A stretch of DNA of 52,691 bases from NCBI GenBank assembly GCA_964522515.1, contig CAZFWC010000003.1, positions 1 to 52,691 of the forward strand, in the 5' to 3' direction. The number at the start of each line of letters is the position of its first letter. Position 1 is the stretch's first letter. The stretch is from an uncultured Gammaproteobacteria bacterium. Its GTDB lineage: Bacteria; Patescibacteriota; Patescibacteriia; UBA2196. The notes below the pieces were generated by a model. The model saw only the letters and a program-made list of their open reading frames with translations. It had not been told where the DNA came from and ran no database searches. This document shows positions 2,754 through 43,584 of the stretch, in pieces. Made by a program: the position numbers and the translations under genes.

Positions 2754-3683
2754 TTACATCCATTTTTTCTTTTTAAAATAAATTAACATTCCAAAAGCGC
2801 CTACAAACATAATTGCAACAACAAACCAAAAATCATAAACTGAATTAATAAATGGCATTGAATTCATTGTGTTCATTCCAAAAATCGCAGCCATTAAAGT
2901 TAAAGGAAAAACAATCACAGAAAAAATAGTTAAAGTTTTAATAATTTCATTTAACCGATGAGAAAGCAAAGATTCGTGCGCTTCGTGTAAAGCATTAATT
3001 GTCTCTTTGTAATTTTCCAAAAATTCCCAAATGTCTTTTGTGTGATTAATTAAATGTTCAAGATAAATATTTAAATGAGTTGATGAATAAATTATTCCAG
3101 AGTTTTTAATTAATTTTTTAATAATACTTCTGTGCGCTTGCATTATTTTTCTAAAGTTTACAATATTTTTTTTAATGCGCATTATTTCTAAAATAATGTC
3201 TGCTTTGTTTTTTTGAACATTTAAAATTTTATCTTCAATATTATCAAGATCTTGATTAATGTGATTTAAAATTGGGAAACAATAATGCAAAAGTTGATTT
3301 AAAATTTCGTATAAAAGTTTTGAGCTGTCTGATAAAAATTTTGCTTTAGTTTGTTCATTTTTTACGCACTGATTTTGTAAATTTAAAATTGGTTCAAGAT
3401 GATTATTGTGAACTAAAACTATTTTATTTTTAGCAATAAAAAAATCAACTTCAGATGATTTTATTTCTTGAGTTTTTTTATCATAATAAGGAAACATTAA
3501 AATCATAAATAAATAATTTTTTTTCACTGTGACTTTTGGTCTTTGATTTGGTGGCAGACAATCTTGTAAATCTTTTTTATCAAAATCAAAATTTTCACCA
3601 ATCCAACCAATTTGTTTTTTTGTTGGTTTATCAATAATGTGCCAAGTTAAATTTTGGTGACTTATTTTTTGGATGTGATTCAT
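2754..3683 (-). CDS. corA: CorA-family magnesium/cobalt transporter
   Basis: 309 aa. Two C-terminal TM helices with the GMN signature (FGMNTMN) after a long soluble N-terminal domain. Confidence 0.85.
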   Translation of the reverse strand: MNHIQKISHQNLTWHIIDKPTKKQIGWIGENFDFDKKDLQDCLPPNQRPKVTVKKNYLFMILMFPYYDKKTQEIKSSEVDFFIAKNKIVLVHNNHLEPILNLQNQCVKNEQTKAKFLSDSSKLLYEILNQLLHYCFPILNHINQDLDNIEDKILNVQKNKADIILEIMRIKKNIVNFRKIMQAHRSIIKKLIKNSGIIYSSTHLNIYLEHLINHTKDIWEFLENYKETINALHEAHESLLSHRLNEIIKTLTIFSVIVFPLTLMAAIFGMNTMNSMPFINSVYDFWFVVAIMFVGAFGMLIYFKKKKWM

Positions 3684-4992: not shown

Positions 4993-7572
4993 ATGAATAA
5001 TTATTATTCTGAACCAAGTTTTTTAGAAACAATATTTTCAAACCCAATTATTGTAGTTGGTTTGTTTTTGTTGCTAATAATTATCGCAATTTTTATTGCT
5101 TTAAATATTTGGAAATATTTTGCGCGAAAAGGATTTAATTTACCCACAGAATTTAGAAAAATAATTTTAATGGTTTCAGTTCCAAAAGAATCAACAGCTG
5201 AAAAAACAGAAAATGAAGAAGGAGTAAAAGCAAGTAAAATTCAAGAACAAATTTCCTGGGCAGAAAATTTGTGGTCAAGTTTAGGTGGATTAAAAGAATC
5301 AAAAAGTTTTAAAACTTGGCTTTATGGAAGATTTGATGAATTGTCTTTAGAAATTGTAGCGCAAAACAAAATGATTTATTTTTATGTTGTTGTTCCGCAA
5401 TATTTACAACAATTTATTGAACAACAAATTCAAGCTCAGTACCCGCATTCACAAATTGAACAAGTTGAAGATTATAATATTTTTATTCCAAACGGACAAA
5501 CAAGTTCAGCGTATTTAAAATTAACAAAATCAGATGTTTTTCCATTTAAAACTTTTCGCAAAATGGAAGCAGATCCGTTAAACGCTTTAACAAATATTTT
5601 ATCAAAATTAAATGAAAACGAAGGCGCTGTAATTCAATTAATTATTAGACCAGCAAATAAAAATTGGAGCAGTAAAGCAAGAAAAGTTTCTGATCAAGTT
5701 TTGTCTGGAAAAAAAATAAAAGAAGCAGTTGGCGGTTCAGGTGACAAAGCTTGGTACGATAAAATTGCAAAATTAACAATTAAAGGAGTTGGAAGTGTTG
5801 CTTCAACAATTACGACTTCGCCTGAAAATCAAAAACAAGATTTACAAAATCAAAATCAACTTTCTTCAATGGATCAAGAGTCATTAAAATCAATTGAAGA
5901 AAAATCTTCAAAAGCAGTTGCTCAAGTAAATTTGCGAGTTGTTGTTTCATCTGAAAATGAAATTTCAGTTAAAACAAATTTGGAAAATATCTTAAATTCT
6001 TTTTCACAATATAATATTTACGAATACGGAAACAGTTTTAAAGCAGTAAAAATGTCTAAAAATAATAAATTAATAAATTCTTTTATTCACCGTTCATTAA
6101 TTAAAAATCAAAGTTATGTTTTAAACACTGAAGAAATCGCGTCAATTTTTCATTTTCCTTTGCCAAATTGTCCAACGCCAAATATTCATTGGTTAGGGGC
6201 GCGAAAAGCTCCTGCGCCAGTTAATTCGCCTCAAGAAGGTTTAATTTTAGGAAAAAATATTTATCGCGGAAAAGAAACAATTATTAGAATTAAAAAAGAT
6301 GACAGACGAAGACACGCGTATATTGTTGGAATGACAGGAACTGGAAAATCAAAATTAATGGTAAATATGATAATGCAAGATATTCAAAACGGAGAAGGTG
6401 TTTGTTACATTGATCCTCACGGCGAAGAAGTTGAAGATATTGCTTCAGCAATTCCAAAACACAGAATAAAAGATGTGATTTATTTTGATCCAGCAGACAC
6501 TGAAAGACCAATTGGATTAAATATGCTTGAAGCAAAAACAATTGAACAAAAAGATTTTGCCGCGCAAGAAATGATTCAGATTTTTTATAAAATTGTAAGT
6601 GACCCAGCAATGCTTGGTCCAATGTTTGAACATTATATGAGAAACGCGATGTTGCTTTTAATGGCTGACAAAGAAAATCAAGGAACTATTGTTGAAATTC
6701 CAAGAGTTTTTGTTGATGATGATTTTAGAAAAGCAAAATTAGAAAAATGTGATGACATTTTAGTTAAATCATTTTGGGAAAAAGAATACACAGCTTCGCA
6801 AAAAGGTTCAACTGGCGCAGATATGTTGTCGTATGTGATTTCAAAAGTTGGAAGATTTATTGAAAATGAAATGATGCGAAATGTTATTGGACAGCCGTAT
6901 TCTGGTTTTAATATTCGCGAAATAATGGATAATAAAAAAATTCTTTTAGTAAATTTATCAAAAGGAAAAGTTGGGGAAGTAAATAGTAATTTGTTGGGTT
7001 TAATTTTAGTTTCAAAACTTCAAATGGCTGCAATGGGTCGCGCAGATATTCCTCAAGAACAGCGACACGATTTTTATTTATATATTGATGAATTTCAAAA
7101 TTATGTTACAGATTCAATCGCTGTGATTTTAGCAGAAGCTAGAAAATATCGGTTAAATTTAAATATGGCTCATCAATATATTAGTCAGTTAGTTAAAAAT
7201 AATGACGCGTCAGTTAAGGAAGCGGTTTTTGGAAATGTTGGCACAATGATTTCGTTTCGTGTTGGTGTTGAAGATACTGAAGTTTTAACAAAACAATTTG
7301 CGCCGGTTTTTAATGAATTTGATTTAATGAATATTGAAAAATATAATGCTTACACTCGTTTGTTGGTGAACAACGAGCCGGTGCGTCCGTTTAATATGCA
7401 AGCGTTTCCACCAGTTCAGGGTGATTTAAAAACAGCAGAAATTATTAAAAATTATTCTCGTCAAAAATATGGAAGGCCAAAAGATGTTGTTGAACAAGAA
7501 ATTTTAGAAAGATCTAAACTCGGTCAACAAAGTGAAAATGTTGAAACAAAAGATAAAATGGATTTGAGATAG
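4993..7572 (+). CDS. membrane-anchored TraD/VirD4-like (FtsK/HerA-superfamily) P-loop ATPase, fused form
   Basis: 859 aa. N-terminal TM helix (IIVVGLFLLLIIIAIFIALNIW), then a ~350-aa domain homologous to ORF 27948-29384. Walker A is GMTGTGKS (nt 6328-6351), followed by DPHGEE. Walker B-like is FYLYIDEFQN. ARKYRLNLNMAHQYISQL resembles type IV coupling proteins. Confidence 0.75.
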   Translation: MNNYYSEPSFLETIFSNPIIVVGLFLLLIIIAIFIALNIWKYFARKGFNLPTEFRKIILMVSVPKESTAEKTENEEGVKASKIQEQISWAENLWSSLGGLKESKSFKTWLYGRFDELSLEIVAQNKMIYFYVVVPQYLQQFIEQQIQAQYPHSQIEQVEDYNIFIPNGQTSSAYLKLTKSDVFPFKTFRKMEADPLNALTNILSKLNENEGAVIQLIIRPANKNWSSKARKVSDQVLSGKKIKEAVGGSGDKAWYDKIAKLTIKGVGSVASTITTSPENQKQDLQNQNQLSSMDQESLKSIEEKSSKAVAQVNLRVVVSSENEISVKTNLENILNSFSQYNIYEYGNSFKAVKMSKNNKLINSFIHRSLIKNQSYVLNTEEIASIFHFPLPNCPTPNIHWLGARKAPAPVNSPQEGLILGKNIYRGKETIIRIKKDDRRRHAYIVGMTGTGKSKLMVNMIMQDIQNGEGVCYIDPHGEEVEDIASAIPKHRIKDVIYFDPADTERPIGLNMLEAKTIEQKDFAAQEMIQIFYKIVSDPAMLGPMFEHYMRNAMLLLMADKENQGTIVEIPRVFVDDDFRKAKLEKCDDILVKSFWEKEYTASQKGSTGADMLSYVISKVGRFIENEMMRNVIGQPYSGFNIREIMDNKKILLVNLSKGKVGEVNSNLLGLILVSKLQMAAMGRADIPQEQRHDFYLYIDEFQNYVTDSIAVILAEARKYRLNLNMAHQYISQLVKNNDASVKEAVFGNVGTMISFRVGVEDTEVLTKQFAPVFNEFDLMNIEKYNAYTRLLVNNEPVRPFNMQAFPPVQGDLKTAEIIKNYSRQKYGRPKDVVEQEILERSKLGQQSENVETKDKMDLR

Positions 7573-8261: not shown

Positions 8262-10085
8262 ATGACCTCGCAAGAATTAAGACGAAAATACATAGATTTT
8301 TTTGTAAAAAAAGGGCACACTGAAATTCCTTCTGCTTCTTTGGTTCCTGAAAATGATCCTTCAACTTTATTTATTTCAGCAGGAATGCAACCAATTGCTT
8401 CTTTTTTAATGGGTGAAAAACATCCATCTGGAAATAAATTAGTTAATTCTCAAAAATGTATTCGCACTGATGATATTGACGAAGTTGGTGATAAATTTCA
8501 CCACACTTTTTTTGAAATGCTTGGGCACTGGTCGCTCGGAGATTATTGGAAAAAACAAGCAATAAAAATGAGCTGGGAGTTTTCAACACAAGAGTTGGGT
8601 TTAGATAAAAATAAATTAGCAGTAACGGTTTTTGAAGGAAATGTGAATGCTTCTAAAGATGAAGAATCAATTCAAGTTTGGAAAAGTTTAGGTTTTCCAG
8701 AGCAGAGAATTATTAAATTAAATAAAAAAGAAAATTGGTGGGAGCCAGCAGGTGAAAGTGGTCCGTGTGGTCCAGACACAGAAATGTTTTATTGGACAGA
8801 TAATAAAAATCCTGCGCCAGAAAAGTTTAATCCAGAAGATTCTCGCTGGTTTGAAATCGGAAATGATGTGCTGATGCAATATAATAAAATTGCTAAAAAT
8901 AAATATATTCCAGCTAAACAGAAAAATATTGATAATGGTACAGGTTTTGAAAGGGTTGTAGCTGTTACGAATAATTTAGATGATAATTATTTAACTGATT
9001 TGTTTTTGCCTATTATTAAAAAAATTGAAGAGTTAAGTGAAAAAAATTACAAAAATGTTTCTGAAGAAATTAAAAAAAGTATAAGAATAATTGCAGATCA
9101 TTTAAGAGCAGCGACTTTTATTTTAGCAGACAACACAAAAATTATTCCGTCAAACACAGATCAAGGATATGTTATTAGAAAATTAATTCGCAGAGCAATT
9201 CGGCACGGACGAATGATTGGAATTAAAGAAAATTTTACGCGCAAAATCGCAGAAGTTGTAATTAATTTAATGTCAGAAATTTATCCAGAATTAGAAAAAA
9301 ACAAAAAATTTGTTTTAGATAATTTTGAATTAGAAGAAGAAAAATTTACAAAAACTTTGCAACAGGGGTTAAAAAAATTTCAGAAATTAGAAATCAGAAA
9401 TCAGAAATTAGGACAGAAAAAAATTAGCGGCGCAGAAGTATTTGATTTATTTCAAACTTACGGTTTTCCAATTGAATTAACAAAAGAACTAGCAAGTGAA
9501 AAAGGTTTAGAAGTTGATGAAAAAGGTTTTGAAAAAGAAATGAAAAAACATCAAGAACTTTCTAGAACCGCGACAGCTGGAAAATTTAAAGGTGGTTTAG
9601 CAAATCAATCTGAACAAACAATTAAATATCACACAACAGCGCATTTAATGTTGGCTGCTTTGCGAAAAGTTTTAAATGAAAATATTCAACAAAAAGGTTC
9701 AAATATAAATGAGGAAAGATTGCGATTTGATTTTTCTTATTCTGAAAAAATGACAGATGAACAAAAAGCAGAAGTTGAAAATTTAGTTAATAATTGGATT
9801 AAACAAGATTTAAAAATTATTTGTGAAGAAATGAGTTTGGACGAAGCTAAAAAACAAGGAGCAACCGGAGCTTTTGAAAATAAATACGGAGAAAAAGTTA
9901 AAGTTTTTACAATTGGCTCCTCCTTCGCTAAAGCTACGGCGGACAGGGAAAATAATAATATTGTTAGTAAAGAAATTTGCGGAGGTCCGCACATTAAACG
10001 CACAGGAAATTTAGGAAAATTTAAAATTAAAAAAGAACAATCAAGTTCTGCTGGGATTAGGAGAATTAAAGCAGTTTTGGAATAA
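8262..10085 (+). CDS. alaS: alanine--tRNA ligase, short form lacking the C-terminal C-Ala/DHHA1 region
   Basis: 607 aa. The N-terminal class II catalytic core (FFVKKGHTEIPSASLVP, FHHTFFEMLGHWS) and the editing domain (HTTAHLM, ICGGPH) are present. The ORF ends shortly after the editing domain. Contains repeat insertions at 9381-9413 and 9919-9947. Confidence 0.9.
   Translation: MTSQELRRKYIDFFVKKGHTEIPSASLVPENDPSTLFISAGMQPIASFLMGEKHPSGNKLVNSQKCIRTDDIDEVGDKFHHTFFEMLGHWSLGDYWKKQAIKMSWEFSTQELGLDKNKLAVTVFEGNVNASKDEESIQVWKSLGFPEQRIIKLNKKENWWEPAGESGPCGPDTEMFYWTDNKNPAPEKFNPEDSRWFEIGNDVLMQYNKIAKNKYIPAKQKNIDNGTGFERVVAVTNNLDDNYLTDLFLPIIKKIEELSEKNYKNVSEEIKKSIRIIADHLRAATFILADNTKIIPSNTDQGYVIRKLIRRAIRHGRMIGIKENFTRKIAEVVINLMSEIYPELEKNKKFVLDNFELEEEKFTKTLQQGLKKFQKLEIRNQKLGQKKISGAEVFDLFQTYGFPIELTKELASEKGLEVDEKGFEKEMKKHQELSRTATAGKFKGGLANQSEQTIKYHTTAHLMLAALRKVLNENIQQKGSNINEERLRFDFSYSEKMTDEQKAEVENLVNNWIKQDLKIICEEMSLDEAKKQGATGAFENKYGEKVKVFTIGSSFAKATADRENNNIVSKEICGGPHIKRTGNLGKFKIKKEQSSSAGIRRIKAVLE
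9381..9413. repeat. Heptamer array ([CT]AGAAAT)x4 inside the alaS CDS
   Basis: CAGAAATTAGAAATCAGAAATCAGAAATTAGGA, translated as KLEIRNQKLG. Confidence 0.8.
9919..9947 (+). repeat. Family-1 fragment inside the alaS CDS
   Basis: CCTCCTTCGCTAAAGCTACGGCGGACAGG is identical to 41425-41453. It is translated as SSFAKATADR within the editing-domain region. Confidence 0.9.
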
Positions 10086-11804: not shown

Positions 11805-11833
11805 TTGACATTATTTTTAATATAATTTATACT
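11805..11833 (+). promoter_or_regulatory. candidate promoter of the infA-rpmJ-rpsM-rpsK-rpsD-rpoA-rplQ operon
   Basis: TTGACA-17 nt-TATACT, about 105 nt upstream of the infA ATG. Confidence 0.6.
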
Positions 11834-11942: not shown

Positions 11943-12230
11943 ATGTTAAAACAACAAAATTCAAATCAAAATTTAAATAGTAAAAATACAAATGAAGATT
12001 TTAGTAATTTTAAGATAAATAAAAAAGGATTTATTGAAGTTAGCGGTGAAGTTTTAGAAACCTTGCCAAGTATTACTTTTCGTGTTAAATTAGAAAATGA
12101 TCACGAAATTTTGGCCCGTTTATCAGGCAAGATGAGAATGCACAGAATTTTGCTTCTTCCTGGAGACAAAGTTAAAATAGAAATGAGTCCGTATGATTTA
12201 GATAAAGGTAGAATTACTTACAGGTATTAA
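11943..12230 (+). CDS. infA: translation initiation factor IF-1 with N-terminal extension
   Basis: The C-terminal 70 aa are typical IF-1 S1-like ([63 protein letters not shown]). About 25 extra N/K-rich residues precede this if the ATG at 11943 is used. Confidence 0.85.
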
Positions 12231-12237
12231 AAAATTT

Positions 12238-12281
12238 ATCCGCCGTAGCAATTAAAGGATTGCCAGGGAGCGAAGGCGGGC
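12238..12281 (+). repeat. Family-1 GC-rich arm (CCGCCGTAG...GCGAAGGCGGG) upstream of rpmJ
   Basis: TATCCGCCGTAGCAATTAAAGGATTGCCAGGGAGCGAAGGCGGG. This is the near-exact reverse complement of the left arm of copies 13479-13668 and 43416-43584. Confidence 0.85.
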
Positions 12282-12290
12282 GCACAATTA

Positions 12291-12404
12291 TGAAAGTTCG
12301 TTCGTCAGTTAAAAAAATGTGTAAAGATTGTAAAGTAATCCGTCGTAAAGGACGGGTTGTTGTTATTTGTAAAAACCCAAGACATAAACAAAGACAAGGA
12401 TAGG
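12291..12404 (+). CDS. rpmJ: 50S ribosomal protein L36
   Basis: Not in the ORF track (37 aa). Translation is [37 protein letters not shown]. Canonical position between infA and rpsM. Confidence 0.9.
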
Positions 12405-12411
12405 AACTTTC

Positions 12412-12506
12412 CCGCCTTCGCCTCTAAAAAACTCTACTGGACTACGGCGGGCGAGTTCCTAGTTCTTTTTAAATAAAATTTTAAATTAAAATTTTATTTA
12501 AAAAGC
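12412..12506 (+). repeat. Family-1 complementary arm plus AT hairpin downstream of rpmJ
   Basis: CCCGCCTTCGCCTCTAAAAAACTCTACTGGACTACGGCGGG, then the perfect AT palindrome CTTTTTAAATAAAATTTT / AAAATTTTATTTAAAAAG. Confidence 0.85.
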
Positions 12507-12517
12507 ATTTAAATTTT

Positions 12518-12907
12518 ATGCCTAGAATTGCAGGATCTAATTTACCAAATGAAAAAAGAGTTGAAATCGGTTTAACTTATATTTTTGGAATTGGAAAAAG
12601 TTTATCTAATAAAATTTTAAAAGAATTAAAAATTAATCCAGACACGCGAGTTAAAGATTTGCAAGAAAATGATGTGAACAAATTAAGACAAAAAATTGAA
12701 AAAGAATTTATTGTTGAAGGTGATTTAAGAAGGGAAAGAGTTGGGAATATTAAACGCTTAAAAGAAATTAATAGTTATCGAGGTTCTCGTCACGCAAAAG
12801 GGTTGCCAAGCAGGGGTCAAAGAACTCGTAGCAATACAAGAACTTTACGCGGAAACAAAAGAGTTGGAGTTGGATCTGGAAGAAAAAGCGCAGATCAAAA
12901 AACATAA
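12518..12907 (+). CDS. rpsM: 30S ribosomal protein S13
   Basis: 129 aa. [26 protein letters not shown] is a typical S13 N-terminus. Operon context agrees. Confidence 0.92.
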
Positions 12908-12965
12908 AGACGCAGAAAAACTCGGAACGCCCCGCTGGGTTTTACGCTGAACTACGCTGAAAAAA

Positions 12966-13478
12966 ATGTCAGAAAATAATAAAAAAAATTTAGAAAATAA
13001 TAAAAAAAAATCTGAAAAAAAAGATGAGGATATTAGTATTGATAAAAAGAAAAAACAAGAATTAGAAAGTGAAGAAACAGCCACAGTAGTTGTTAAAGGT
13101 AAAAAAAAGAAAAAACAAGCGCCTTTTTTAAGAGGCGGAAGAGGTCAAGCTCATATTAAATCATCTTACAATAATACAATTGTTTCAGTCACTGATTTAA
13201 ATGGAGCAGTTTTAATTTGGGCAACTGCTGGAAAATGCGGTTTTAAAGGTCCTAAAAAATCAACACCTTACGCAGCAGGAACAATTATTAAATCACTAGC
13301 AAATAAAATTAAAGAATTAGGGATAAAAGAAGTTGATGTTTTTGTAAAAGGCGTCGGCACTGGTCGAGAGTCGGCAATTCGAGCTTTAGGCACAATTAAT
13401 GTTTCTGTTGTTTCAATTAAAGATGTAACGCCAATTCCTCACGGTGGTTGCAGACCAAAGAAAAAACGAAGAGTTTAA
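12966..13478 (+). CDS. rpsK: 30S ribosomal protein S11 with Lys/Glu-rich N-terminal extension
   Basis: 170 aa. S11 core ([30 protein letters not shown] ... [16 protein letters not shown]) preceded by ~40 low-complexity residues. Confidence 0.9.
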
Positions 13479-13668
13479 ATCGCTTACCCTCCTTCGCTCC
13501 CTAGCAACTCTTTAATTGCTACGGCGCCTGTCCGCCGTAGCTTTAGCGAAGGAGGAGGCAAGCTCCTGTGTTTTTTAAATTTTAAACACAAGAGTTCCTG
13601 CCTGTCGGCAGACAGGTATCCGCCGTAGTCCAGTAGTCCCGAGTACTCGGGATTAGGGGCGAAGACGG
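13479..13668 (+). repeat. Family-1 composite GC-rich palindromic spacer element, copy A (rpsK-rpsD)
   Basis: Modules in order: CCTCCTTCGC..GCTACGGCG/CCGCCGTAGC..AGCGAAGGAGG, the CTCCTGTGTT-loop-AACACAAGAG hairpin, CCTGCCTGTCGGCAGACAGG, CCGCCGTAGTCCAGTAG, CCCGAGTACTCGGG, GCGAAGACGG. Confidence 0.9.
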
Positions 13669-13678
13669 AAAAATTATT

Positions 13679-14311
13679 ATGGCAAAATATTTAGGTCCAA
13701 AATGTAAAATTTGCAGAAGACTTGGTGAAAAACTTTGTTCAAAAGGTGAACGAGGTTTAGGCGCCAAGTGCGCTTTGGTTAAAAGAAATTATCCTCCGGG
13801 ACTTCACGGACAAAAAGGACACTCTCGTTTAACTGATTTTGGAGTGCATTTAAAAGAAAAACAAAAAGTAAAAATAATATATTTTGTTTTAGAAAAACAA
13901 CTTAAAAAATATTTTAATTTAGCGTCTAAAAATAAAATGGACACTGGCTCAAAATTTATAGAACTTTTGGAAAGAAGGTTAGATAATGTGATTTTTCGTT
14001 TAGGTTTAGCAAAATCGCGACCACAAGCTCGTCAAATGGTAAGCCACAGTTTATTTTTAATTAATAATAAAAAAATTAATGTTCCATCTTGTGAAATTAA
14101 ATCAGGAGATGTAATTTCAATTCGTAAAGACAAAAGTTTAAATAAAGGAATTTTAGCTGAGAATTTAAAAAATATTAAACAAGATGAAATTTCAGGTTGG
14201 TTAGATTGGGATGAAAAAGAAAACAAAGCAAAAATTGTTAGTTTGCCAAAAGATAAAGATTTGGAAGTTGGAATTGACACAAGACTTGTTGTAGAATATT
14301 ATTCAAAATAA
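13679..14311 (+). CDS. rpsD: 30S ribosomal protein S4
   Basis: 210 aa. MAKYLGPKCKICRRLGEKLCSKGERG zinc-finger-type N-terminus plus an S4 RNA-binding domain. Confidence 0.92.
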   Translation: MAKYLGPKCKICRRLGEKLCSKGERGLGAKCALVKRNYPPGLHGQKGHSRLTDFGVHLKEKQKVKIIYFVLEKQLKKYFNLASKNKMDTGSKFIELLERRLDNVIFRLGLAKSRPQARQMVSHSLFLINNKKINVPSCEIKSGDVISIRKDKSLNKGILAENLKNIKQDEISGWLDWDEKENKAKIVSLPKDKDLEVGIDTRLVVEYYSK

Positions 14312-14451
14312 TCGCCTAACCCTCCTTCGCTTCAACTCTAAAAAAATTCTAGCTACGGCGGACAGGCTTCTAGTTCTAAATTTAAAAGCATTAAAATTTT
14401 ATCCACCGTAGTCCAGTAGAGTTGTTTAAGGGCGAAGGCGGATAAACAAAT
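14312..14451 (+). repeat. Family-1 composite spacer element, copy B (rpsD-rpoA)
   Basis: TCGCCTAACCCTCCTTCGC...GCTACGGCGGACAGG...CCACCGTAGTCCAGTAG...GGGCGAAGGCGGATAAACAAAT. Confidence 0.9.
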
Positions 14452-14458
14452 AAATTTT

Positions 14459-15247
14459 ATGAATATAATTCCCACTGCTCAAAAAAAAGAATTTATTTTT
14501 TCTGAAACGCCTAACAAAGGCAAATTTATTATTGAACCGCTTTTCCCTGGTTTTGGTTTAACAATTGGAAACGCTTTAAGAAGAGTTTTGCTTTCTTCAC
14601 TTGATGGAGTTGCAATTACTTCAATTAGAATAAAAGGCGCTGACCACGAATTTACAACAATTGACGGAATTAAAGAAGACTTGGTAGATATTATTTTAAA
14701 TTTAAAACAAATTAGATTTGATGTAACTGGAAATTTTGAAGAACCAATTAAAATGCAATTAAAAGTTAAAGGCGCGAAAGAAATTAAGGCAAAAGATTTT
14801 AAAAAAACCGCTGGAGTAAAAGTTGCTAATCCAGATTTAATTATTGCTCAAGCAACTGATTCTAAAGCAGAATTTGAATTAGAAGCTTGGATTGAAAAGG
14901 GCAGAGGTTATTTGCCAACTGAAATGATGGAACACAAAGAAAAAGAAATTGGTGTAATTACAATTGATGCATTTTTTTCACCAATTAAAAGAGTTGCAAT
15001 TGATACTGAAAATGTTCGTGTTGGCGAAATGACAAATTGGGATAAATTAATTTTAAATTTAGAAACTGATAGCACCATTTCTTGTGAGGATGCTTTAAAT
15101 AAAGCTACTCAAATTTTAGTTGAGCAATTTCAGTTTTTGTTAGAGAATAAAATAGAAAGTTCAGAAAAATTAGAAAAAGAAAAAGAAGACTTAGTGGAAG
15201 AAAAGCCAAAGAAAAAAGCTAAATCAAAAAAAGAAGAAATCGCCTAA
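14459..15247 (+). CDS. rpoA: DNA-directed RNA polymerase alpha subunit, N-terminal domain only
   Basis: 262 aa. Alpha-NTD motifs present (FIIEPLFPGFGLTIGNALRRVLLSSL). The C-terminus is a K/E-rich tail. No HhH alpha-CTD sequence is visible. Confidence 0.88.
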   Translation: MNIIPTAQKKEFIFSETPNKGKFIIEPLFPGFGLTIGNALRRVLLSSLDGVAITSIRIKGADHEFTTIDGIKEDLVDIILNLKQIRFDVTGNFEEPIKMQLKVKGAKEIKAKDFKKTAGVKVANPDLIIAQATDSKAEFELEAWIEKGRGYLPTEMMEHKEKEIGVITIDAFFSPIKRVAIDTENVRVGEMTNWDKLILNLETDSTISCEDALNKATQILVEQFQFLLENKIESSEKLEKEKEDLVEEKPKKKAKSKKEEIA

Positions 15248-15401
15248 TCCTCCTACACCTTCAATCCTAAAAAAATTCTAGCTACGGCGGGCAAGCTCCT
15301 GTGTTTTTTAAATTTTAAATACAAGAGTTCCTGCCTGTCGGCAGACAGGTATCCGCCGTAGTCCAGTAGGATTTTTTAAGGGCGAAGGCGGATAAACAAA
15401 T
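15239..15401 (+). repeat. Family-1 composite spacer element, copy C (rpoA-rplQ)
   Basis: ATCGCCTAA (which contains the rpoA stop), TCCTCCTACACCTTC, GCTACGGCGG, central hairpin, CCTGCCTGTCGGCAGACAGG, CCGCCGTAGTCCAGTAG, GGGCGAAGGCGGATAAACAAAT, then the rplQ ATG. Confidence 0.9.
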
Positions 15402-15752
15402 ATGCGACATCAAAAAACAAAAAAAACATTAGGCAGAAAAACTGGACCGCGAAAAGCATTATTTAAAAATTTATTGCAGTCTTTGATTTTGTATGAAAAA
15501 ATAAAAACAACAGAAATAAAAGCAAAAGAAATTAAACCTTTAATGGAAAAAATGGTTACACGCGCTAAAAATGACTCTTTACACAATCGTCGTGAAATAA
15601 TGAAAATAATTCCAACAAAAAATGCTGTTAAAAAATTATTTGAAGTTGTTGGACCAAAGTACAAAGAAAGAAAAGGCGGGTACTTAAGAATTATAAAATT
15701 AAATCCAAGAAAAGGGGACGGAGCTAAAATGGCAATTATAGAATTTATTTAG
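15402..15752 (+). CDS. rplQ: 50S ribosomal protein L17
   Basis: 116 aa. MRHQKTKKTLGRKTGPRKAL is a typical L17 start. Follows rpoA. Confidence 0.92.
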   Translation: MRHQKTKKTLGRKTGPRKALFKNLLQSLILYEKIKTTEIKAKEIKPLMEKMVTRAKNDSLHNRREIMKIIPTKNAVKKLFEVVGPKYKERKGGYLRIIKLNPRKGDGAKMAIIEFI

Positions 15753-15814
15753 TGTTACCCGAATAAAACACGAATTATTTCCAAATAAATCCGAATATTT
15801 TTTTTAAATATTTT

Positions 15815-16692: not shown

Positions 16693-17936
16693 ATTTCCTC
16701 TTTAACAATTTTTCTATCATCCCAATCAATCATTTTTCCATTTGCTAAACACATTTTTTGTTCAGCGCCTTTGCCAGTAAGTAAAATTAAATCATTAGGT
16801 TTTGCAAGTAGCAGAGCTTTTTGAATTGCTTCTCTTCTATCTAATATTTTATATAATTTATTTTCTGGAACTTTAGATGCAACTTGATTAATAATTTCTT
16901 GTGGATTTTCATCGTACGGATCTTCGTTGGTTACAATTACAGTGTTTGCATTTTCTGATGTTAATTTTCCAAGAATTTGTCTGCGAGATTTGTCGCGTCC
17001 TCCACCAGCTGATCCTAAAATATGAATTATTTTATTGTGTTCCACATTTTTTACTGTTTCATATAATTTTTCAATTGCTTTTGGTTCAAAAGCGTAATCA
17101 ATTAAAATTTTAATTTTTAAATCATTTTTAATAAATTCTAATCTGCCGGGTAAAGGTTTTAAATTTTCAACTGCTGATTTGACAGGGTAAATTTTATCTT
17201 CTGCAACTTTTAAAACTTTAGCCACAGCAACACCAGCTAAAATATTATATTTATTATAATCACCGAGTAAATTAATTTTTAAATTATTTAATTTAACATC
17301 TGCATTTGAATTTATTCCGTAAGTTATTTTTTTGTCTGCCCAAAAATTTAAAAAATATTCTGCGTGTTCGTCATCTAAATTTGCAATTATTGTTTTTTTT
17401 ATTTCTAATTTCTTTTTTTTGCATTTAGATAAATATTTAAATAATTTGCCTTTTGTAGTTTTATAATTTTCAAAACTGCCGTGTGATTCAATGTGCTCTG
17501 GATAAAGATTTGTAAAAACTAAAATATCATAATTAATTCCCAAATGTCTGAACTGTTTTATTCCTTCTGAACTTGTTTCAATAATTGCGACTTCACATTT
17601 ATTTTTAACCATTTGTTTTAATAATTTTTGCAAACCAAATCTTCCAAGCATTGTCATTTTTTTATTATTTAACCATTCTTTTTTATTTATTTTAAATAAA
17701 GTAGTTGTGCTCATTCCAACTTTAAAACCTGCTTTTTCTAAAATTTGCGCAATAAAATAGCACGAAGAAGATTTTCCAGTTGTGCCGGTTACTCCAATTA
17801 CAATCATTTTGTTTGATGGATAATTATAAACTAAAGCGCTAATTTTAGCCAAGATCCAATGATAAATTGGCTGTAATTTTTCAAACAGTTTTTTTGGAAT
17901 TATTTTTTTAATTAAATTTAGGAGTTTGTTTATCAT
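16677..17936 (-). CDS. Mur ligase family protein (MurE-like, no N-terminal domain)
   Basis: GVTGTTGKSSS P-loop, ETSSEG, and Mur ligase middle and C-terminal domains. Start moved to the ATG at 17936, which has a GGGGAGAG SD-like upstream. Upstream codons run into the repeat at 17941-18052. Confidence 0.8.
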   Translation of the reverse strand: MINKLLNLIKKIIPKKLFEKLQPIYHWILAKISALVYNYPSNKMIVIGVTGTTGKSSSCYFIAQILEKAGFKVGMSTTTLFKINKKEWLNNKKMTMLGRFGLQKLLKQMVKNKCEVAIIETSSEGIKQFRHLGINYDILVFTNLYPEHIESHGSFENYKTTKGKLFKYLSKCKKKKLEIKKTIIANLDDEHAEYFLNFWADKKITYGINSNADVKLNNLKINLLGDYNKYNILAGVAVAKVLKVAEDKIYPVKSAVENLKPLPGRLEFIKNDLKIKILIDYAFEPKAIEKLYETVKNVEHNKIIHILGSAGGGRDKSRRQILGKLTSENANTVIVTNEDPYDENPQEIINQVASKVPENKLYKILDRREAIQKALLLAKPNDLILLTGKGAEQKMCLANGKMIDWDDRKIVKEEIKKLA

Positions 17937-17940
17937 TTTA

Positions 17941-18052
17941 GAGTCTCTCCCCATTTTCAAGGGGGAGATTAAGAGGGGGTTAATAATTTTAATTAAATAA
18001 TTTATTAACCACCCCCAACCCCTCCTTCAAAAGGAGGGGAGGATATTTTTTT
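17941..18052 (-). repeat. Family-2 triple-hairpin GC-rich element, copy 1
   Basis: GAGTCTCTCCCCATTTTCAAGGGGGAGATTAAGAGGGGGTTAATAATTTTAATTAAATAATTTATTAACCACCCCCAACCCCTCCTTCAAAAGGAGGGGAGG. It spans the junction between the Mur ligase gene and the upstream membrane-protein gene. Confidence 0.9.
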
Positions 18053-20761: not shown

Positions 20762-20927
20762 TTCTCCCCTCCTTTTCAAGGAGAGTTTTATTATTAGGAC
20801 TTTTTAGAGTCTCTCCCCATTTTCAAGGGGGAGACTAAGAGGGGGTTAATAATTTTAATTAAATTATTTATTAACCACCCCCAGCCCCTCCCTGCCTACC
20901 GGACAGGCAGGCTTGAAAAGGAGGGGA
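20762..20927 (-). repeat. Family-2 element, copy 2, with nested palindromic module and an extra hairpin
   Basis: Same core as copy 1 with few substitutions. CCTGCCTACCGGACAGGCAGG is inserted in the loop of the last hairpin. An extra CTCCCCTCCTTTTCAAGGAGAG hairpin abuts the ruvA ATG. Confidence 0.9.
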
Positions 20928-22012: not shown

Positions 22013-22726
22013 ATGCAAGAACGCCTACAAAAAATTTTATCAAGATTTGGTGTTGCTTCTCGCAGAAAAGCAGAAGAGCTTATTTTAAATAAAAAAGTTT
22101 TAGTAAATAATAAAATTGCAAAATTAGGTCAAAAAGTTGATTTAAAGAAAGATATTGTTGAAGTAAAACACAGAAGCCTGTCCGCCGAAGCTGGGAATTT
22201 TAGGGTTGAAGCGAAGGAGGAACAGGCGGTTTATTATTTAGTTAATAAACCTGTGAATTTTACTTGCTCTGTTTCTGATAAACACGCTAAAAAATTAATT
22301 ACTGATTTAGTCCCTAAAAATCCAAAAGTTTGGCCAGTTGGGAGATTGGATAAAAATTCAACGGGTTTAATAATTTTAACTAATGACGGAAATTTAACAA
22401 ATAAATTAACTCATCCAAAATTTAAACACGAAAAGGAATACGAAGTTGCGGTTGATAAAAAAATTTCTGAAAAATTTTTGCAGAAAATGAAAAAGGGAAT
22501 TAAATTAGATGAAGGAGTTGCTAAAGCTGATAAAATTATTGCGTTAAATAAAAATAAATTTATAATAATTTTACATCAAGGTTGGAAAAGACAAATCCGC
22601 AGAATGTGTGAGAAATTAAATTATAAAGTTTTGGAATTAAAAAGAACAAGAATTGGAAAAATAAAATTAAAAGATTTAAAAGAAGGCAAGTTTGAAGAAA
22701 TAAAAAAGCCACTGGATGTAAATTAG
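22013..22726 (+). CDS. RsuA/RluB-family pseudouridine synthase with S4 domain
   Basis: 237 aa. S4 domain (RLQKILSRFGVASRRKAEELI) and catalytic GRLDKNSTGLIILTNDG. Has an in-frame GC-rich insertion at 22177-22229. Confidence 0.88.
   Translation: MQERLQKILSRFGVASRRKAEELILNKKVLVNNKIAKLGQKVDLKKDIVEVKHRSLSAEAGNFRVEAKEEQAVYYLVNKPVNFTCSVSDKHAKKLITDLVPKNPKVWPVGRLDKNSTGLIILTNDGNLTNKLTHPKFKHEKEYEVAVDKKISEKFLQKMKKGIKLDEGVAKADKIIALNKNKFIIILHQGWKRQIRRMCEKLNYKVLELKRTRIGKIKLKDLKEGKFEEIKKPLDVN
22177..22229 (+). repeat. Family-1 fragment (inverted orientation) inside the pseudouridine synthase CDS
   Basis: CCTGTCCGCCGAAGCTGGGAATTTTAGGGTTGAAGCGAAGGAGGAACAGGCGG, translated as SLSAEAGNFRVEAKEEQA between the S4 and catalytic domains. 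Confidence 0.85.
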
Positions 22727-31350: not shown

Positions 31351-31719
31351 ATGAAAATTCTTGCAATTGATTACGGAACAAAAAATATTGGTTTAGCTTT
31401 GTCAGATGATGAACAAAAGTTAGGGTTTGCGTACAAAACAATCAATAATTTTTTAGAATTAAAAAATATTTGTGAAAAAGAAAAAGTAGAAAAAATTATT
31501 ATTGGTTTGCCAATTAATTTATCTGGCACAAAAACCAAATCAACAGAGATGGTTTTTAATTTTATTAAAAAATTAAAAAAAGAGTTAGATCTGCCAATTG
31601 AAACAGTTGACGAAAGATTAAGCACAGTGGAAGCTGAAAAAATAAAAACTAAGAAACAAAAAAATATTGATGAACTTACTGCGCAGATTTTGTTGCAAAG
31701 TTATTTGGATAAAAAATAG
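31351..31719 (+). CDS. ruvX: Holliday junction resolvase-like protein YqgF/RuvX
   Basis: MKILAIDYGTKNIGLALSD is the YqgF N-terminus. AGGTGGAG RBS upstream. The ORF-track start at 31303 reads through a repeat hairpin. Confidence 0.85.
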   Translation: MKILAIDYGTKNIGLALSDDEQKLGFAYKTINNFLELKNICEKEKVEKIIIGLPINLSGTKTKSTEMVFNFIKKLKKELDLPIETVDERLSTVEAEKIKTKKQKNIDELTAQILLQSYLDKK

Positions 31720-31802
31720 CACGCGAATTTCCAGAATTACCTAAAATTTTCACGAATTTAAATTCTGGTTTATTCTGGTCATTTTGGTAATTCGTGTTCT
31801 TA
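31717..31802. repeat. Family-5 long imperfect palindrome, upstream flank of the WecA-like gene
   Basis: TAGCACGCGAATTTCCAGAATTACC...ATTCTGGTTTATTCTGG...GGTAATTCGTGTTCTTA. It shares the AAAATAGCACGC...GTGTTCT termini with 4335-4425. Confidence 0.8.
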
Positions 31803-32922: not shown

Positions 32923-33006
32923 AATTTTCATGAATTAAAATTCTGGTTTATTCTGGCTCAAAAGTAAAATCATTTACTTTTTCGCTTTTGGTAATTCGCG
33001 TGCTAT
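32895..33006. repeat. Family-5 long imperfect palindrome, downstream flank of the WecA-like gene
   Basis: CAGCACACGAATTTCCAGAATTGCCTAAAATTTTCATGAATTAAAATTCTGGTTTATTCTGG...GGTAATTCGCGTGCT. The first ~65 nt are near-identical to 31718-31782. Overlaps the last 9 codons of the CDS. Confidence 0.85.
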
Positions 33007-34058: not shown

Positions 34059-34706
34059 TTAAATCTCTGTCCTTCCTTTAAACGCGTTAGCTAAAGTAAT
34101 TTCATCAGCGTATTCTAAATCAGCGCCTTGAGGAAGTCCGCGAGCAAGTTTACTGATTTTAATGTGAGGAAATTTTTTAAAAAGTTTTGTTAAATATAAA
34201 TTGGTTGTTTCGCCTTCAATTGTTGGATTTAAAGCTAAAATTATTTCTTTAATATTATTTTGGCTTGCACGCCGTAGCCCTGTCTTGCCGACAGGCAGGC
34301 TTGGCGTAGGAGGGTTGATTCTATTTTCTAAATTTTTAATATTTAATTTATCAGGAGTTACTCCTTCAATTGAATTTAAAACGCCATTTAAAATATGGTA
34401 AACTCCATTAAATTCTTTAGATTTTTCAAGCGGAACAACATCTGAACTTTCAGCAACAACACAAATTATTGTGTGGTCTCGTTGTGAATTAGAACAAATT
34501 GAACACAAATCATTTTCAGAAATTTGTCCGCATTGTGAACAATTTTTAATATTATCTTTAATATGCAATAAAGTGTTTGCAAAATCTGACAAAGTTTTTT
34601 TGTCTTTTTTAAGTAAATAAAAAACTAACCGTTCGGCAGTTTTTTGACCAATGTTGGGTAAAGAAGAAAAATGTTGAATTAAATTTTCTATTGATGTTGG
34701 TAGCAT
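34059..34706 (-). CDS. recR: recombination protein RecR
   Basis: 215 aa. HhH (LPNIGQKTAERLVFYLL), C4 zinc finger (CSQCGQISENDLCSICS) and Toprim domain. Has a ~16-aa GC-rich insertion (PPTPSLPVGKTGLRRAS). Confidence 0.9.
   Translation of the reverse strand: MLPTSIENLIQHFSSLPNIGQKTAERLVFYLLKKDKKTLSDFANTLLHIKDNIKNCSQCGQISENDLCSICSNSQRDHTIICVVAESSDVVPLEKSKEFNGVYHILNGVLNSIEGVTPDKLNIKNLENRINPPTPSLPVGKTGLRRASQNNIKEIILALNPTIEGETTNLYLTKLFKKFPHIKISKLARGLPQGADLEYADEITLANAFKGRTEI
34268..34315 (-). repeat. Family-1 fragment inside the recR CDS
   Basis: On the gene strand: CCCTCCTACGCCAAGCCTGCCTGTCGGCAAGACAGGGCTACGGCGTGC, translated as PPTPSLPVGKTGLRRA. Confidence 0.85.
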
Positions 34707-36468: not shown

Positions 36469-36627
36469 TTAAGTTTTCCGCCTTCGCCCATAATCCCGAG
36501 TACTCGGGACTACTGGACTACGGCGGATACCTGTCTGCCGACAGGCAGGAAATTTTAATGTTTTTAAATAAAAAATTTTAATCTAAAGATATTATTGTTA
36601 GAGTTTGAGCGAAGGAGGTTAGCGACT
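36469..36627 (-). repeat. Family-1 composite spacer element, copy E (upstream of dnaB, minus orientation)
   Basis: Read on the minus strand: AGTCGCTAACCTCCTTCGC...CCTGCCTGTCGGCAGACAGG..CCGCCGTAGTCCAGTAGTCCCGAGTACTCGGG..GGGCGAAGGCGGAAAACTTAA, then the dnaB ATG. Confidence 0.9.
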
Positions 36628-41152: not shown

Positions 41153-41194
41153 TTTTCAATTTTCAATTTTCAAACCTGTCTGCCGACAGGCAGG
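41151..41194 (+). repeat. Heptamer array (AATTTTC)x3 fused to an isolated CCTGTCTGCCGACAGGCAGG module
   Basis: Starts within the stop codon of pilin-like gene 39815-41152. Combines two repeat types seen elsewhere in the window. Confidence 0.8.
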
Positions 41195-41382
41195 CAATTA
41201 TTTATTTAATTAATTTTAAAAATTTAAAAATAAAAAACCCCGTCCAATGCGTAATTTTTATGTGTAGTTGTGCCACTTTCATCGTACCAAACAATTAGAT
41301 ATCTTTTCGTTATCTTTATCCTCCAATTTTAAATTTTTAACTCCAATTAATTATAAATTATTTTTAGCACACCATTAAAAAA

Positions 41383-42048
41383 ATGTCAAATCAAAAAAAT
41401 TCAGCGTTAAATCAGCGCACAAATCCTCCTTCGCTAAAGCTACGGCGGACAGGTCAGCGTCAGTCAGCGTCTAAGGGATTTACTTTAGTAGAATTAATGG
41501 TTGCGATTTCAATTTTTCTTTTAGCTACTTTTGTGGTAAGTGTTTTTATAATTCAAAATTTTCAAACTCAAAATTTTTCTTTAGAACAATCTTCTGCAAT
41601 TACTGAAGCGCGACGAGGAGTTGAAACTTTAGTTAAAGAACTGCGCGAAGCTTTGCCAGCAGACACTGGCGCTTATCCAATTGAATTTGCAAATGACCAA
41701 GAAATAATTTTTTACGCAGATTACGATCGCGACAACGCAATTGAAAAAGTTCATTATTGGTTAGATGAAAGTGATTTTAAAAAAAATGTGATTGAAGCAG
41801 GCGGAAGTCCACTTTCTTATTCTGGTGCAGGAGAAACAGAAATAATTTCTCGTTTTGTTAGAAATAATACAACAACAATTTTTACTTATTTTAACGGCGA
41901 TTACGCAACAAGCGCAACTCCTGCTGATCCAAATACCGTTAAACTAATTAATATTTATTTAAAAATTAATGTTAAACCACAACACGCGCCAACTGATTTT
42001 GAACTAGAATCTGATGTGAGTTTAAGGAATTTGAAAGAAAATCTATGA
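41383..42048 (+). CDS. minor pilin / pseudopilin with repeat-expanded leader peptide
   Basis: 221 aa. GFTLVELMVAISIFLL prepilin motif. The leader is 19 aa longer than in the paralogous upstream pilin because of a GC-rich insertion at 41408-41464. Confidence 0.8.
   Translation: MSNQKNSALNQRTNPPSLKLRRTGQRQSASKGFTLVELMVAISIFLLATFVVSVFIIQNFQTQNFSLEQSSAITEARRGVETLVKELREALPADTGAYPIEFANDQEIIFYADYDRDNAIEKVHYWLDESDFKKNVIEAGGSPLSYSGAGETEIISRFVRNNTTTIFTYFNGDYATSATPADPNTVKLINIYLKINVKPQHAPTDFELESDVSLRNLKENL
41408..41464 (+). repeat. 57-nt GC-rich in-frame insertion in the pilin leader
   Basis: Absent from the otherwise matching 5' end of paralog 39815. Contains the 29-nt core CCTCCTTCGCTAAAGCTACGGCGGACAGG. 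TCAGCG(T/C) is reiterated at both borders. Confidence 0.85.
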
Positions 42049-43415: not shown

Positions 43416-43584
43416 GTCGCAACCCTCCTTCGCTCTCTAACAACTTTTTAATTGCTACGGCGGGCAAGCTCCTGTGTTTTTTAAATTTTAAACACAAGAG
43501 TTCCTGCCTGTCGGCAGACAGGTATCCGCCGTAGTCCAGTAGTCCCGAGTACTCGGGACTAGGAACAAAGGCGGAAAACTCAAT
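43416..43584 (+). repeat. Family-1 composite spacer element, copy D (PilX-like gene to pilM)
   Basis: GTCGCAACCCTCCTTCGC..GCTACGGCGG..central hairpin..CCTGCCTGTCGGCAGACAGG..CCGCCGTAGTCCAGTAGTCCCGAGTACTCGGG..AAAGGCGGAAAACTCAAT, then the pilM ATG. Long stretches are near-identical to copy A. Confidence 0.9.

Follow-up and report, generated by a model that had tools for sequence, protein, structure and literature searches.

How does a ribosomal protein operon in a very A+T-rich bacterial genome come to carry, in three consecutive spacers, bulky G+C-rich hairpin cassettes that run from one stop codon to the next start codon? The question is raised by the rpsK-rpsD-rpoA-rplQ block of a 52,691-nucleotide metagenomic contig (hereafter the window, meaning this whole stretch of DNA). 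The window has a G+C content of 28%, and its RpoA matches proteins of Patescibacteria (candidate phyla radiation, CPR), with Kuenenbacteria among the nearest named ones. A preliminary description, made from the letters alone, had suggested a role of the cassettes in mRNA processing, stability or translational coupling. The analysis presented here identifies them as members of a dispersed, recently expanded repeat and not as a conserved regulatory cassette. This family has recently multiplied in a 28%-G+C Patescibacteria population, has replaced tiny A/T spacers between operon genes, and has also landed in frame in tolerant protein loops. We consider it fairly probable that the cassettes form a lineage-specific, mosaic palindrome family akin to repetitive extragenic palindromic (REP) sequences, bacterial interspersed mosaic elements (BIMEs) and MITEs (miniature transposable elements with inverted repeats), tolerated as selfish DNA and filtered in its placement by selection.

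Pfam confirmed the four gene assignments and the spacer coordinates, and set the block within the order infA, rpmJ, rpsM, rpsK, rpsD, rpoA, rplQ, rplM and rpsI (Table 1). The spacers at 13479-13678, 14312-14458 and 15248-15401 (200, 147 and 154 nt) align as versions of one composite element, as had been proposed. Its left end, (A)TCGCYTAA(C), is followed by a left arm made of CCTCCTTCGC, about 20 nt and GCTACGGCGG; next come an A/T-rich hairpin, an optional CCTGCCTGTCGGCAGACAGG, and a right arm made of TATCCGCCGTAG-TCCAGTAG, an optional CCCGAGTACTCGGG and GCGAAGGCGG, with an A-rich tail preceding the ATG. The basic unit is the arm hairpin, written CCKCC-TTC-GC...GC-TAC-GGCGG or, as its complement, CCGCC-GTA-G...C-GAA-GGCGG. 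The A/T-rich hairpin is enclosed by two such arms in inverted orientation, and the two optional modules are small palindromes. The arms, about 45 nt each, are inverted repeats in a subterminal position: there is no complementarity between the outermost 9-11 nt (TCGCCTAAC, AAAAACTCAAT), and the ends are asymmetric, TCGCCTAA standing at the left end and A(A/G/T)AAAC..AAT at the right. Measured against shuffled sequence, the modules are far too frequent in the window to be accidental, with 15 matches of GCTACGGCGG at no more than one mismatch (0.18 expected by chance), 15 of CCTCCTTCGC in 52.7 kb (0.52 expected) and five of CCTGCCTGTCGGCAGACAGG (0 expected).

What the preliminary description observed in the spacers is confirmed, with corrections to individual copies. 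In copy A (rpsK-rpsD), GCTACGGCGC is followed by a nested short hairpin unit (CCGCCGTAGCTTTAGCGAAGGAGG) that separates the left arm from the A/T-rich central hairpin; CCTGCCTGTCGGCAGACAGG, a right arm holding the palindrome CCCGAGTACTCGGG and a 10-nt A/T tail complete the copy. Copy B (rpsD-rpoA) is reduced to left arm, A/T-rich centre and right arm, without the CCTGCCTG...CAGG module and without the CCCGAG palindrome, and its right box, CCACCGTAG, has one mismatch and a GGCGG-to-ATG distance of 17 nt. The left box of copy C (rpoA-rplQ) is degenerate (CCTCCTACAC). Each element begins at or in the upstream stop codon, as claimed, the stop lying 1-10 nt before the left end or inside it; in copy C the left end ATCGCCTAA contains the rpoA TAA (15245-15247) and gives rpoA an Ile-Ala and its stop codon. 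The distances from GAAGGCGG to the start codon (10, 17 and 10 nt in copies A, B and C) are those previously stated.

The CCTGCCTG...CAGG and CCCGAGTACTCGGG modules are optional in the element and are also found alone, the palindrome CCCGAGTACTCGGG standing on its own at window positions 1426, 27846 and 37053, two of these three sites being within open reading frames (ORFs). Modules thus occur apart and in differing combinations, and the arms fall into a few discrete types shuffled between copies, a mosaic that would fit modular recombination. Assembly artefact was ruled out by the identity of the element copies in independent JGI, ENA and Logan assemblies, although jumps of the assembly from one copy to another may still account for certain variants (L006, L007 and the L002 rpsH-rpsD junction). 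Contigs from other samples (L002/L147 4211-4411, L006 1546-1720, L007 1-273) differ from the window at the repeats: rpsH is joined straight to rpsD via an A-type copy, copy C has an additional nested unit, and copy A an alternative CCTGCCTGTCAGCTAGACAGG module. Real variation could explain these differences, as could gene conversion or jumps of the assembly from repeat to repeat.

The search of related genomes that the preliminary description had called for speaks against a conserved cassette. Two contigs with full synteny (L011 and L009, with RpoA 72% and 78% identical) have spacers of 6 and 10, 17 and 30, and 5 and 6 nt at the three sites, all pure A/T, and nhmmer found no element copy in 67 kb of the relatives' DNA. 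At rpoA-rplQ the relatives read gaagaaTAA-ATTTT-ATG, and the window reads gaagaa-ATCGCCTAA...GGCGGATAAACAAAT-ATG. Since these spacers are empty in syntenic relatives, the copies are lineage-specific insertions. The rpsD-rpoA spacer of another relative (L014 5839-5978) carries an unrelated G+C-rich palindrome (GTCATCCCGAGC...GTCGGAATGAC), and repeats of this sort may land at these junctions repeatedly.

Three consecutive spacers are indeed filled, but the series extends beyond them: with the co-oriented partial copies F and G in the infA-rpmJ and rpmJ-rpsM spacers, five consecutive junctions of the ribosomal operon are occupied. At the site of copy G, the relative L011 has 8 nt only. In all, the window holds five full copies, three partial copies and four intragenic units. 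Furthermore, retrieval with a 20-mer from the right arm, in which orientation to genes was not a criterion, yielded 16 metagenome contigs of 28-34% G+C, most of which overlap each other and one of which overlaps the window at 99.8% identity. They provide about 20 more copies in about 80 kb of the same population, in many unrelated operons (S3-L16, L5-S14 and S14-S8 of S10/spc, secE-nusG-rplK, pilus genes, ftsZ-nrdA, glutaredoxin-dsbA, upstream of smpB, and dnaB).

Placement and orientation of these copies are largely uniform. About 19 non-redundant full-length copies point the same way as the gene or genes beside them, against a single antisense copy (L137 3607-3846; two-sided binomial p ~4e-5); several antisense half copies are also tolerated between co-directional genes. 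In five copies the stop codon falls within the TCGCCTAA/TGA box, 1 nt from the CCKCC box; in twelve others this distance measures 6-10 nt, and in one it measures 19 nt. Of 19 copies, 16 have 9-12 nt separating GGCGG from the ATG, and the other three have 15-17 nt. Even the three copies ahead of operon-first genes, in divergent regions of 210-330 nt, abut the ATG. The stop-to-start placement and fixed orientation first noted in three spacers thus extend far outside them (about 19 to 1); the units are also found within ORFs and as fragments. Compared with their orthologues, alaS is longer by 14 residues and the pseudouridine synthase by 10, and these are true insertions. An identical 30 nt is read in two frames, giving SSFAKATADR in AlaRS and PPSLKLRRTG in the prepilin leader, and the ORFs of recR and of the prepilin leader stay open despite the inserted units.

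The preliminary description had also envisaged a switch in which the right-arm GAAGGCGG would act as a ribosome-binding site and pair with CCTCCTT in the left arm, a mimic of the anti-Shine-Dalgarno sequence. The Shine-Dalgarno (SD) sequence is hardly used here. Among 100 element-free genes of at least 100 aa, GGAG or GAGG occurs at -18 to -5 in seven; G has a frequency of 0.03-0.20 from -14 to -1, dropping to 0.03-0.08 within 8 nt of the start, with no upstream enrichment; and the start context is A-rich at -8 to -3 with T at -1 and lacks an SD. With SD essentially unused and native spacers of pure A/T in this genome and its relatives, GAAGGCGG, which is buried within the predicted stem, is unlikely to be a ribosome-binding site and CCTCCTT unlikely to be an anti-SD mimic in this genome. 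The element tail (AAAAACTCAAT, ATAAACAAAT) resembles the genome's own initiation context, which offers a simple reason for the single tolerated orientation.

The arms had been described as imperfect inverted repeats, and RNAfold predicts that they pair (z -3.6 to -6.8). Copies B and C would form rods with paired arms and copy A a chain of hairpins; the final 10-17 nt and the ATG are left unpaired in all three predicted folds. The tests gave no sign of selection on an RNA structure. RNAalifold found 0 compensatory pairs among 12 arm pairs, so that the covariation foreseen for the stems did not appear, and in a permutation test of duplex energies cognate arms paired no better than non-cognate ones (p=0.16). 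Of 19 copies, only 7 have a sense strand that folds better than its antisense counterpart (p=0.21), and this absence of asymmetry gives no sign of G.U-based selection at the RNA level. Compensation is anecdotal only, in CAACTCTA/TAGAGTTG against CAATCCTA/TAGGATT and at the third position of the CCNCC/GGNGG box, which is G-C, A-T or T-A in three copies and T.C in all remaining ones.

A promoter scan, in which a strong site matched at least 10 of 12 hexamer positions, returned no more sites overall than shuffled sequence, and no strong site inside any copy or between copy B and the terminator after rpsI. It follows that rplQ, rplM, rpsI and probably rpoA would be read through the copies. Two promoter-like sites match at 11 of 12 positions: TTGACA-17-TATTAT at 14274-14302, which falls in rpsD's 3' end shortly upstream of copy B and is the sole strong match before rpoA, and TTGACA-17-TATACT at 11805-11833, before infA.

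Under the selfish-DNA reading, operon copies would be co-transcribed and would fold on themselves, bringing the upstream stop codon, sometimes donated by the element, near a downstream ATG preceded by an A-rich unpaired tail, where SD-independent initiation could go on. Copies in another orientation or position would be removed by selection, and such a filter acting on 5-30-nt spacers would produce the stop-to-start appearance. Several observations weigh against this reading. Abutment is tighter than random insertion into 5-30-nt spacers followed by selection would easily give: about 0 nt of native spacer is left over at most junctions, and at rpoA-rplQ the native stop and spacer (8 nt) were replaced outright, the stop being supplied by the element. 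This hints at a targeted or recombination-based mechanism. No target-site duplication was seen in the empty-versus-filled comparison at the three junctions, no transposase (no RAYT, the REP-associated tyrosine transposase, and no classical insertion sequence) among the 40 window ORFs scanned with Pfam, and no empty/filled polymorphism within the population. The mobility of the family is itself something that we infer from sequence comparison, the co-transcription and folding of its copies are model predictions, and gene-relative orientation is not fully separable from replication-relative orientation. Finally, the covariation null leaves room for an RNA role because the copies are young paralogues with little variation.

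Two alternatives are compatible with the selfish-DNA reading and do not exclude it. One, which we regard as unlikely, is that the element has been exapted as a cis-acting RNA module: the terminating ribosome would melt the left arm and free the pre-ATG region, so that coupling or re-initiation is kept over 150-200 nt, or a site for RNase III/E processing or mRNA stabilisation would tune subunit stoichiometry. The strong orientation bias, the exact abutment of stop and start even at operon-first genes, the stop at the base of the predicted stem, and the ATG placed 9-12 nt after it would all suit such a module, as would the enrichment in essential, highly expressed operons (five of seven spacers from infA to rplQ, four in S10/spc). 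Yet close relatives lack the element at orthologous junctions, the genome does without SD, covariation is not significant and antisense folds equal sense folds in stability; moreover, the same units occur inside ORFs and as fragments, and one full antisense copy, together with several half copies in that orientation, is tolerated between co-directional genes. In other Patescibacteria the right arm appears as GAAGGAGG, 9-25 nt before the start codon of a small GIY-YIG nuclease gene, so an SD-sequestering hairpin may be the ancestral role, applying to the ancestral GIY-YIG cassette in SD-using organisms.

These nuclease genes lead to the other alternative, that of a nuclease-linked mobile element, which we likewise hold to be improbable. 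The arms would be a recognition or cleavage structure, or the ends of a mobile GIY-YIG cassette, and the copies in the window would be derivatives of it that lack the ORF and have spread in trans; the precise stop-to-start replacement would then be accounted for by break repair, and the orientation by the mechanism itself. In the window's population, a 93-aa GIY-YIG ORF (L137 2837-3118) lies between two element arms (2766-3165). GIY-YIG homologues of 79-118 aa are common in Patescibacteria, and when eight such genes at seven loci were picked by protein similarity alone, all eight had arm 9-mers within -250 to +200 nt, versus 2 of 112 background windows (p ~5e-12). Overall, 11 of 12 GIY-YIG loci outside the window show the linkage; one GIY-YIG copy (L149) has no arm. 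The window contains no GIY-YIG gene; the population genome has two. The ORF sits between a left and a right arm in L137, L151 and L249. The association of hairpin and GIY-YIG gene is solid in Patescibacteria and in one Babeliales (Dependentiae) contig.

The usual order at these loci (L137 2837-3118, L023 6332-6565, L035 927-1154, L151-L154, L247-L249) is tRNA-Ser, arm hairpins, GIY-YIG gene, with tRNA-Gln once (the Babeliales contig) and tmRNA once, and the CCGCC of the hairpin overlaps the last bases of the tRNA. A Levybacteria contig (L248) carries two tandem tRNA-Ser/hairpin/GIY-YIG units. The cassettes at L149 5050-5600, L035 860-1310 and L152 1200-1800 are flanked by partial duplicates of neighbouring genes (the anticodon-to-T-arm segment of a tRNA-Arg, the 5' end of a tRNA-Ser, 13 nt of a tmRNA 3' end), and these t(m)RNA duplications look like the trace of site-specific insertion, of which they are typical. 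A tRNA-Ser(CGA) of the window's population (L141 4367-4458) ends in CCTCCTCCGCCA, which agrees with the left box CCTCCTTCGC at 9 of 10 positions, and in L137 the left arm has exactly CCTCCTCCGC; this box may be derived from the acceptor end of tRNA-Ser or may target it.

The GIY-YIG gene could be the mobiliser, the hairpin could be its target, or both could share a niche behind tRNA genes, where hairpins and nuclease genes might each simply accumulate; the gene could also insert into pre-existing hairpins, like some insertion sequences into REPs. Outside Patescibacteria and the Babeliales contig, GIY-YIG genes are nearly never beside the hairpin: they were found at 5 of 209 hairpin loci, and close only at the two Patescibacteria loci. 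An 80-aa catalytic domain without an obvious DNA-binding module and the armless L149 copy further count against the nuclease as mobiliser, and we know of no precedent for a GIY-YIG transposase. For the selfish-DNA reading, the best candidate for a mobilising enzyme is this small nuclease, which accompanies the same hairpin.

Judged by sequence, the element arm is a local version of a hairpin that crosses phyla, of the form CYTGT-CCGCC-GTAG-C..G-CGAA-GGCGG-A, in which a CCGCC/GGCGG stem is joined by a GUA/GAA internal loop to a variable top. One genome per species was scanned with the pattern CCGCCGTAGY-N(4-34)-GCGAAGGMGG, and the matches listed include Alphaproteobacteria (with Bradyrhizobium), Acidobacteriota, Verrucomicrobiota, Bacteroidota, Planctomycetota, Actinomycetota, Omnitrophota and Patescibacteria, and the motif is present in 89 IMG/VR stretches (viral contigs); loci L015-L134 are from species genomes and L158-L237 from IMG/VR. 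Gap lengths among the matches listed peak sharply at 4 nt (at least 50) and 7 nt (at least 29), other lengths occurring 1-6 times each, with a chance expectation, by our own estimate, of about 4-40 matches per gap length over the entire collection. Flanks outside the pattern are conserved (CYTGT ahead of the stem, A/G behind), and the free upper-stem pair covaries across phyla (UA 11, GC 4, CG 3, unpaired 0). In Bradyrhizobium the hairpin is nested in the loop of a GTAG-GGTGGGC...GCCCACC REP. No description of the arm hairpin was found in Rfam or in the literature searched: box sequences retrieved only 16S rRNA primers and unrelated matches, searches on Patescibacteria repeats and on small GIY-YIG genes linked to palindromes retrieved no description, and none of the Rfam families annotated in 18 hairpin loci covers it.

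A conjecture that joins these elements, and which we put forward with little confidence, is that the arm hairpin and the small single-domain GIY-YIG nuclease form an undescribed RAYT/REPIN-like partnership anchored behind tRNA-Ser and tmRNA genes in Patescibacteria and Dependentiae; ORF-less doubled derivatives would spread by break repair and take the exact place of stop-to-start junctions in operons, where their folded RNA may let terminating ribosomes restart across about 150 nt. That the copies are transcription terminators or attenuators between genes is very improbable: G+C-rich hairpins do stand right after stop codons and tRNA 3' ends, weak hairpin-plus-T-run matches lie within copies A and C, and a lone CCTGTCTGCCGACAGGCAGG hairpin precedes a T-rich run after the gene at 39815-41152, but the arms have no U-tracts, and efficient termination would be lethal because five consecutive copies sit in an essential operon with only one strong promoter-like match (14274-14302) following and a clear terminator only after rpsI.

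Among known systems, the closest kinds are REP, BIME and REPIN (REP doublets forming hairpins) sequences; the in-frame copies come nearest to Rickettsia palindromic elements (RPEs), and the gene-abutting, presumably co-transcribed ones to Neisseria REP2, Correia and enterobacterial repetitive intergenic consensus (ERIC) repeats. According to the available parts of PMC3733652, PMC3116915 and PMC2817692, REP, BIME and REPIN sequences lie mainly between co-directional or convergent genes, are co-transcribed and are sometimes intragenic. The window family resembles them as short G+C-rich imperfect palindromes in many copies, with inverted doublets forming a larger hairpin (as in REPINs) mixed with short motifs (as in BIMEs). 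It has a GTAG too, but internally (CCGCC-GTAG-C...), in an in-stem GUA/GAA loop and not as an unpaired 5' tag, with the CYTGT flank preceding the stem, an arrangement unlike that of the families described in the available part of PMC3733652. It also differs in its asymmetric ends, its 28%-G+C Patescibacteria host, its replacement of the whole stop-to-start interval in one orientation, and its companion, which, if any, would be a GIY-YIG nuclease, no RAYT gene having been found among the 40 window ORFs. Relative to MITEs, there is no target-site duplication, the inverted repeats are subterminal, and one copy carries a 93-aa GIY-YIG ORF.

RPEs, of about 100-150 bp, occupy intergenic regions of a reduced, A+T-rich genome and are also inserted in frame into genes (available part of PMC3184786). 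The window units are similarly fused in frame into genes that stay open, adding short peptides, but they are 30-70 nt long and not the whole element, the comparison being by description only. To our knowledge, strict stop-to-start placement has not been described for RPEs. Neisseria REP2 lies immediately upstream of genes and provides a ribosome-binding site and ATG context (available part of PMC3184786). The window copies share abutment on genes with REP2 and predicted co-transcription with Correia and ERIC repeats; they differ from this group, to which the ERIC/YPAL repeats of Yersinia belong, in lacking a detected promoter and a TA target duplication, and their SD-like box is not meaningful here. 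Correia and ERIC repeats are reported by De Gregorio and co-workers to be co-transcribed, to fold into long hairpins and to affect mRNA processing or stability depending on orientation. Fungal mitochondrial GC clusters and double-hairpin elements are mobile, combinatorial, G+C-rich palindromic modules in A+T-rich DNA, found in spacers and occasionally in coding or rRNA sequence; strict gene orientation and stop/start abutment are not among their features, and host and sequences are other. Phage T4 segB is a free-standing GIY-YIG homing endonuclease gene in a tRNA gene cluster, a selfish cassette. The small GIY-YIG genes among or behind tRNA genes recall it, but the proteins here have 79-93 aa, are limited to the catalytic domain and are constantly accompanied by a conserved hairpin; any homing by them is hypothetical.

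Since Patescibacteria genomes are tiny and tightly packed, one would not expect a repeat family at a large share of their operon junctions, essential ribosomal ones among them; the family indicates that selfish palindromes are able to invade even streamlined genomes. Its distribution reveals which placements are tolerated, namely those in which the structure has the stop at its base and leaves an unpaired A-rich tail ahead of the ATG. There are also practical consequences, as such repeats break metagenome assemblies, whose contigs end or jump within them, and put spurious peptides into annotated proteins. Should the GIY-YIG link prove causal, it would represent a new way for short palindromes to spread and would explain the cross-phylum hairpin.

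Table 1. Element copies, related units and host genes in the window (dG in kcal/mol).
Feature	Position	Strand	Evidence or remark
rpsK, rpsD, rpoA, rplQ host block	12966..15752	+	junctions bridged by element copies
rpsK	12966-13478	+	Pfam
rpsD	13679-14311	+	Pfam
rpoA	14459-15247	+	Pfam
rplQ	15402-15752	+	Pfam
Copy A, rpsK-rpsD spacer	13479..13678	+	nhmmer E 1e-55; predicted dG -88.3, z -6.1
Copy B, rpsD-rpoA spacer	14312..14458	+	alignment; predicted dG -40, z -3.6; nhmmer
Copy C, rpoA-rplQ	15239..15401	+	predicted dG -63.5, z -6.8; comparison with relatives
Full copy D, hypothetical gene to pilM	43416..43584	+	nhmmer E 2e-58
Full copy E, divergent intergenic region	36469..36627	-	right end 9 nt before dnaB start (36468)
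Partial copy F, infA-rpmJ spacer	12231..12289	+	right arm only (CCGCCGTAG...GCGAAGGCGG); 10 nt before rpmJ ATG
Partial copy G, rpmJ-rpsM spacer	12404..12517	+	left arm (CCGCCTTCGC...ACTACGGCGG type) and A/T-rich centre; fills spacer
Fragment, central part and CCTGCCTG module	41174..41246	-	downstream of gene 39815-41152
Short hairpin unit in alaS	9918..9947	+	in frame; 14-aa insert SSFAKATADRENNN, missing in orthologues
30-nt unit in prepilin leader peptide	41424..41453	+	upstream of G/FTLVEL cleavage motif; identical to alaS unit
Left-arm-type unit, linker of S4-domain pseudouridine synthase	22165..22234	-	E 1e-9; 10-aa insert relative to L009 orthologue
Arm and CCTG...CAGG-type unit, Toprim domain of recR	34259..34321	-	ORF stays open

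A scan of the window for tRNA and tmRNA genes found none, and Rfam returned no family at gathering thresholds in the whole window and none at E<=1 in the region 12200-15450. The RpoA encoded at 14459-15247 has 262 aa only and lacks the alpha C-terminal domain (PF03118), which is likewise absent from most of its close homologues (239-300 aa). Other repeats accompany the family. The rpsM-rpsK spacer (12908-12965) contains a G+C-rich insert of about 40 nt that is missing in L011, and a CCCGAATAAAACA unit is common to the rplQ-rplM spacer (15753-15814) and the L24-L5 spacer (L147 2662-2728). A separate 90-nt G+C-rich repeat (97% identical, with CCCC/GGGG palindromes) is located at 17936-18025 and 20802-20891, two intergenic sites flanking a murC-like to ruvA block, and a CCTGCCTACCGGACAGGCAGG hairpin adjoins the second. 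A 68-nt direct repeat (90% identical; 31711-31778 and 32889-32956) flanks a glycosyltransferase family 4 gene (31816-32922), and 4993-7572 and 29381-31174 hold paralogous TraG/VirD4-like coupling-protein genes with 71% identity over 300 nt.

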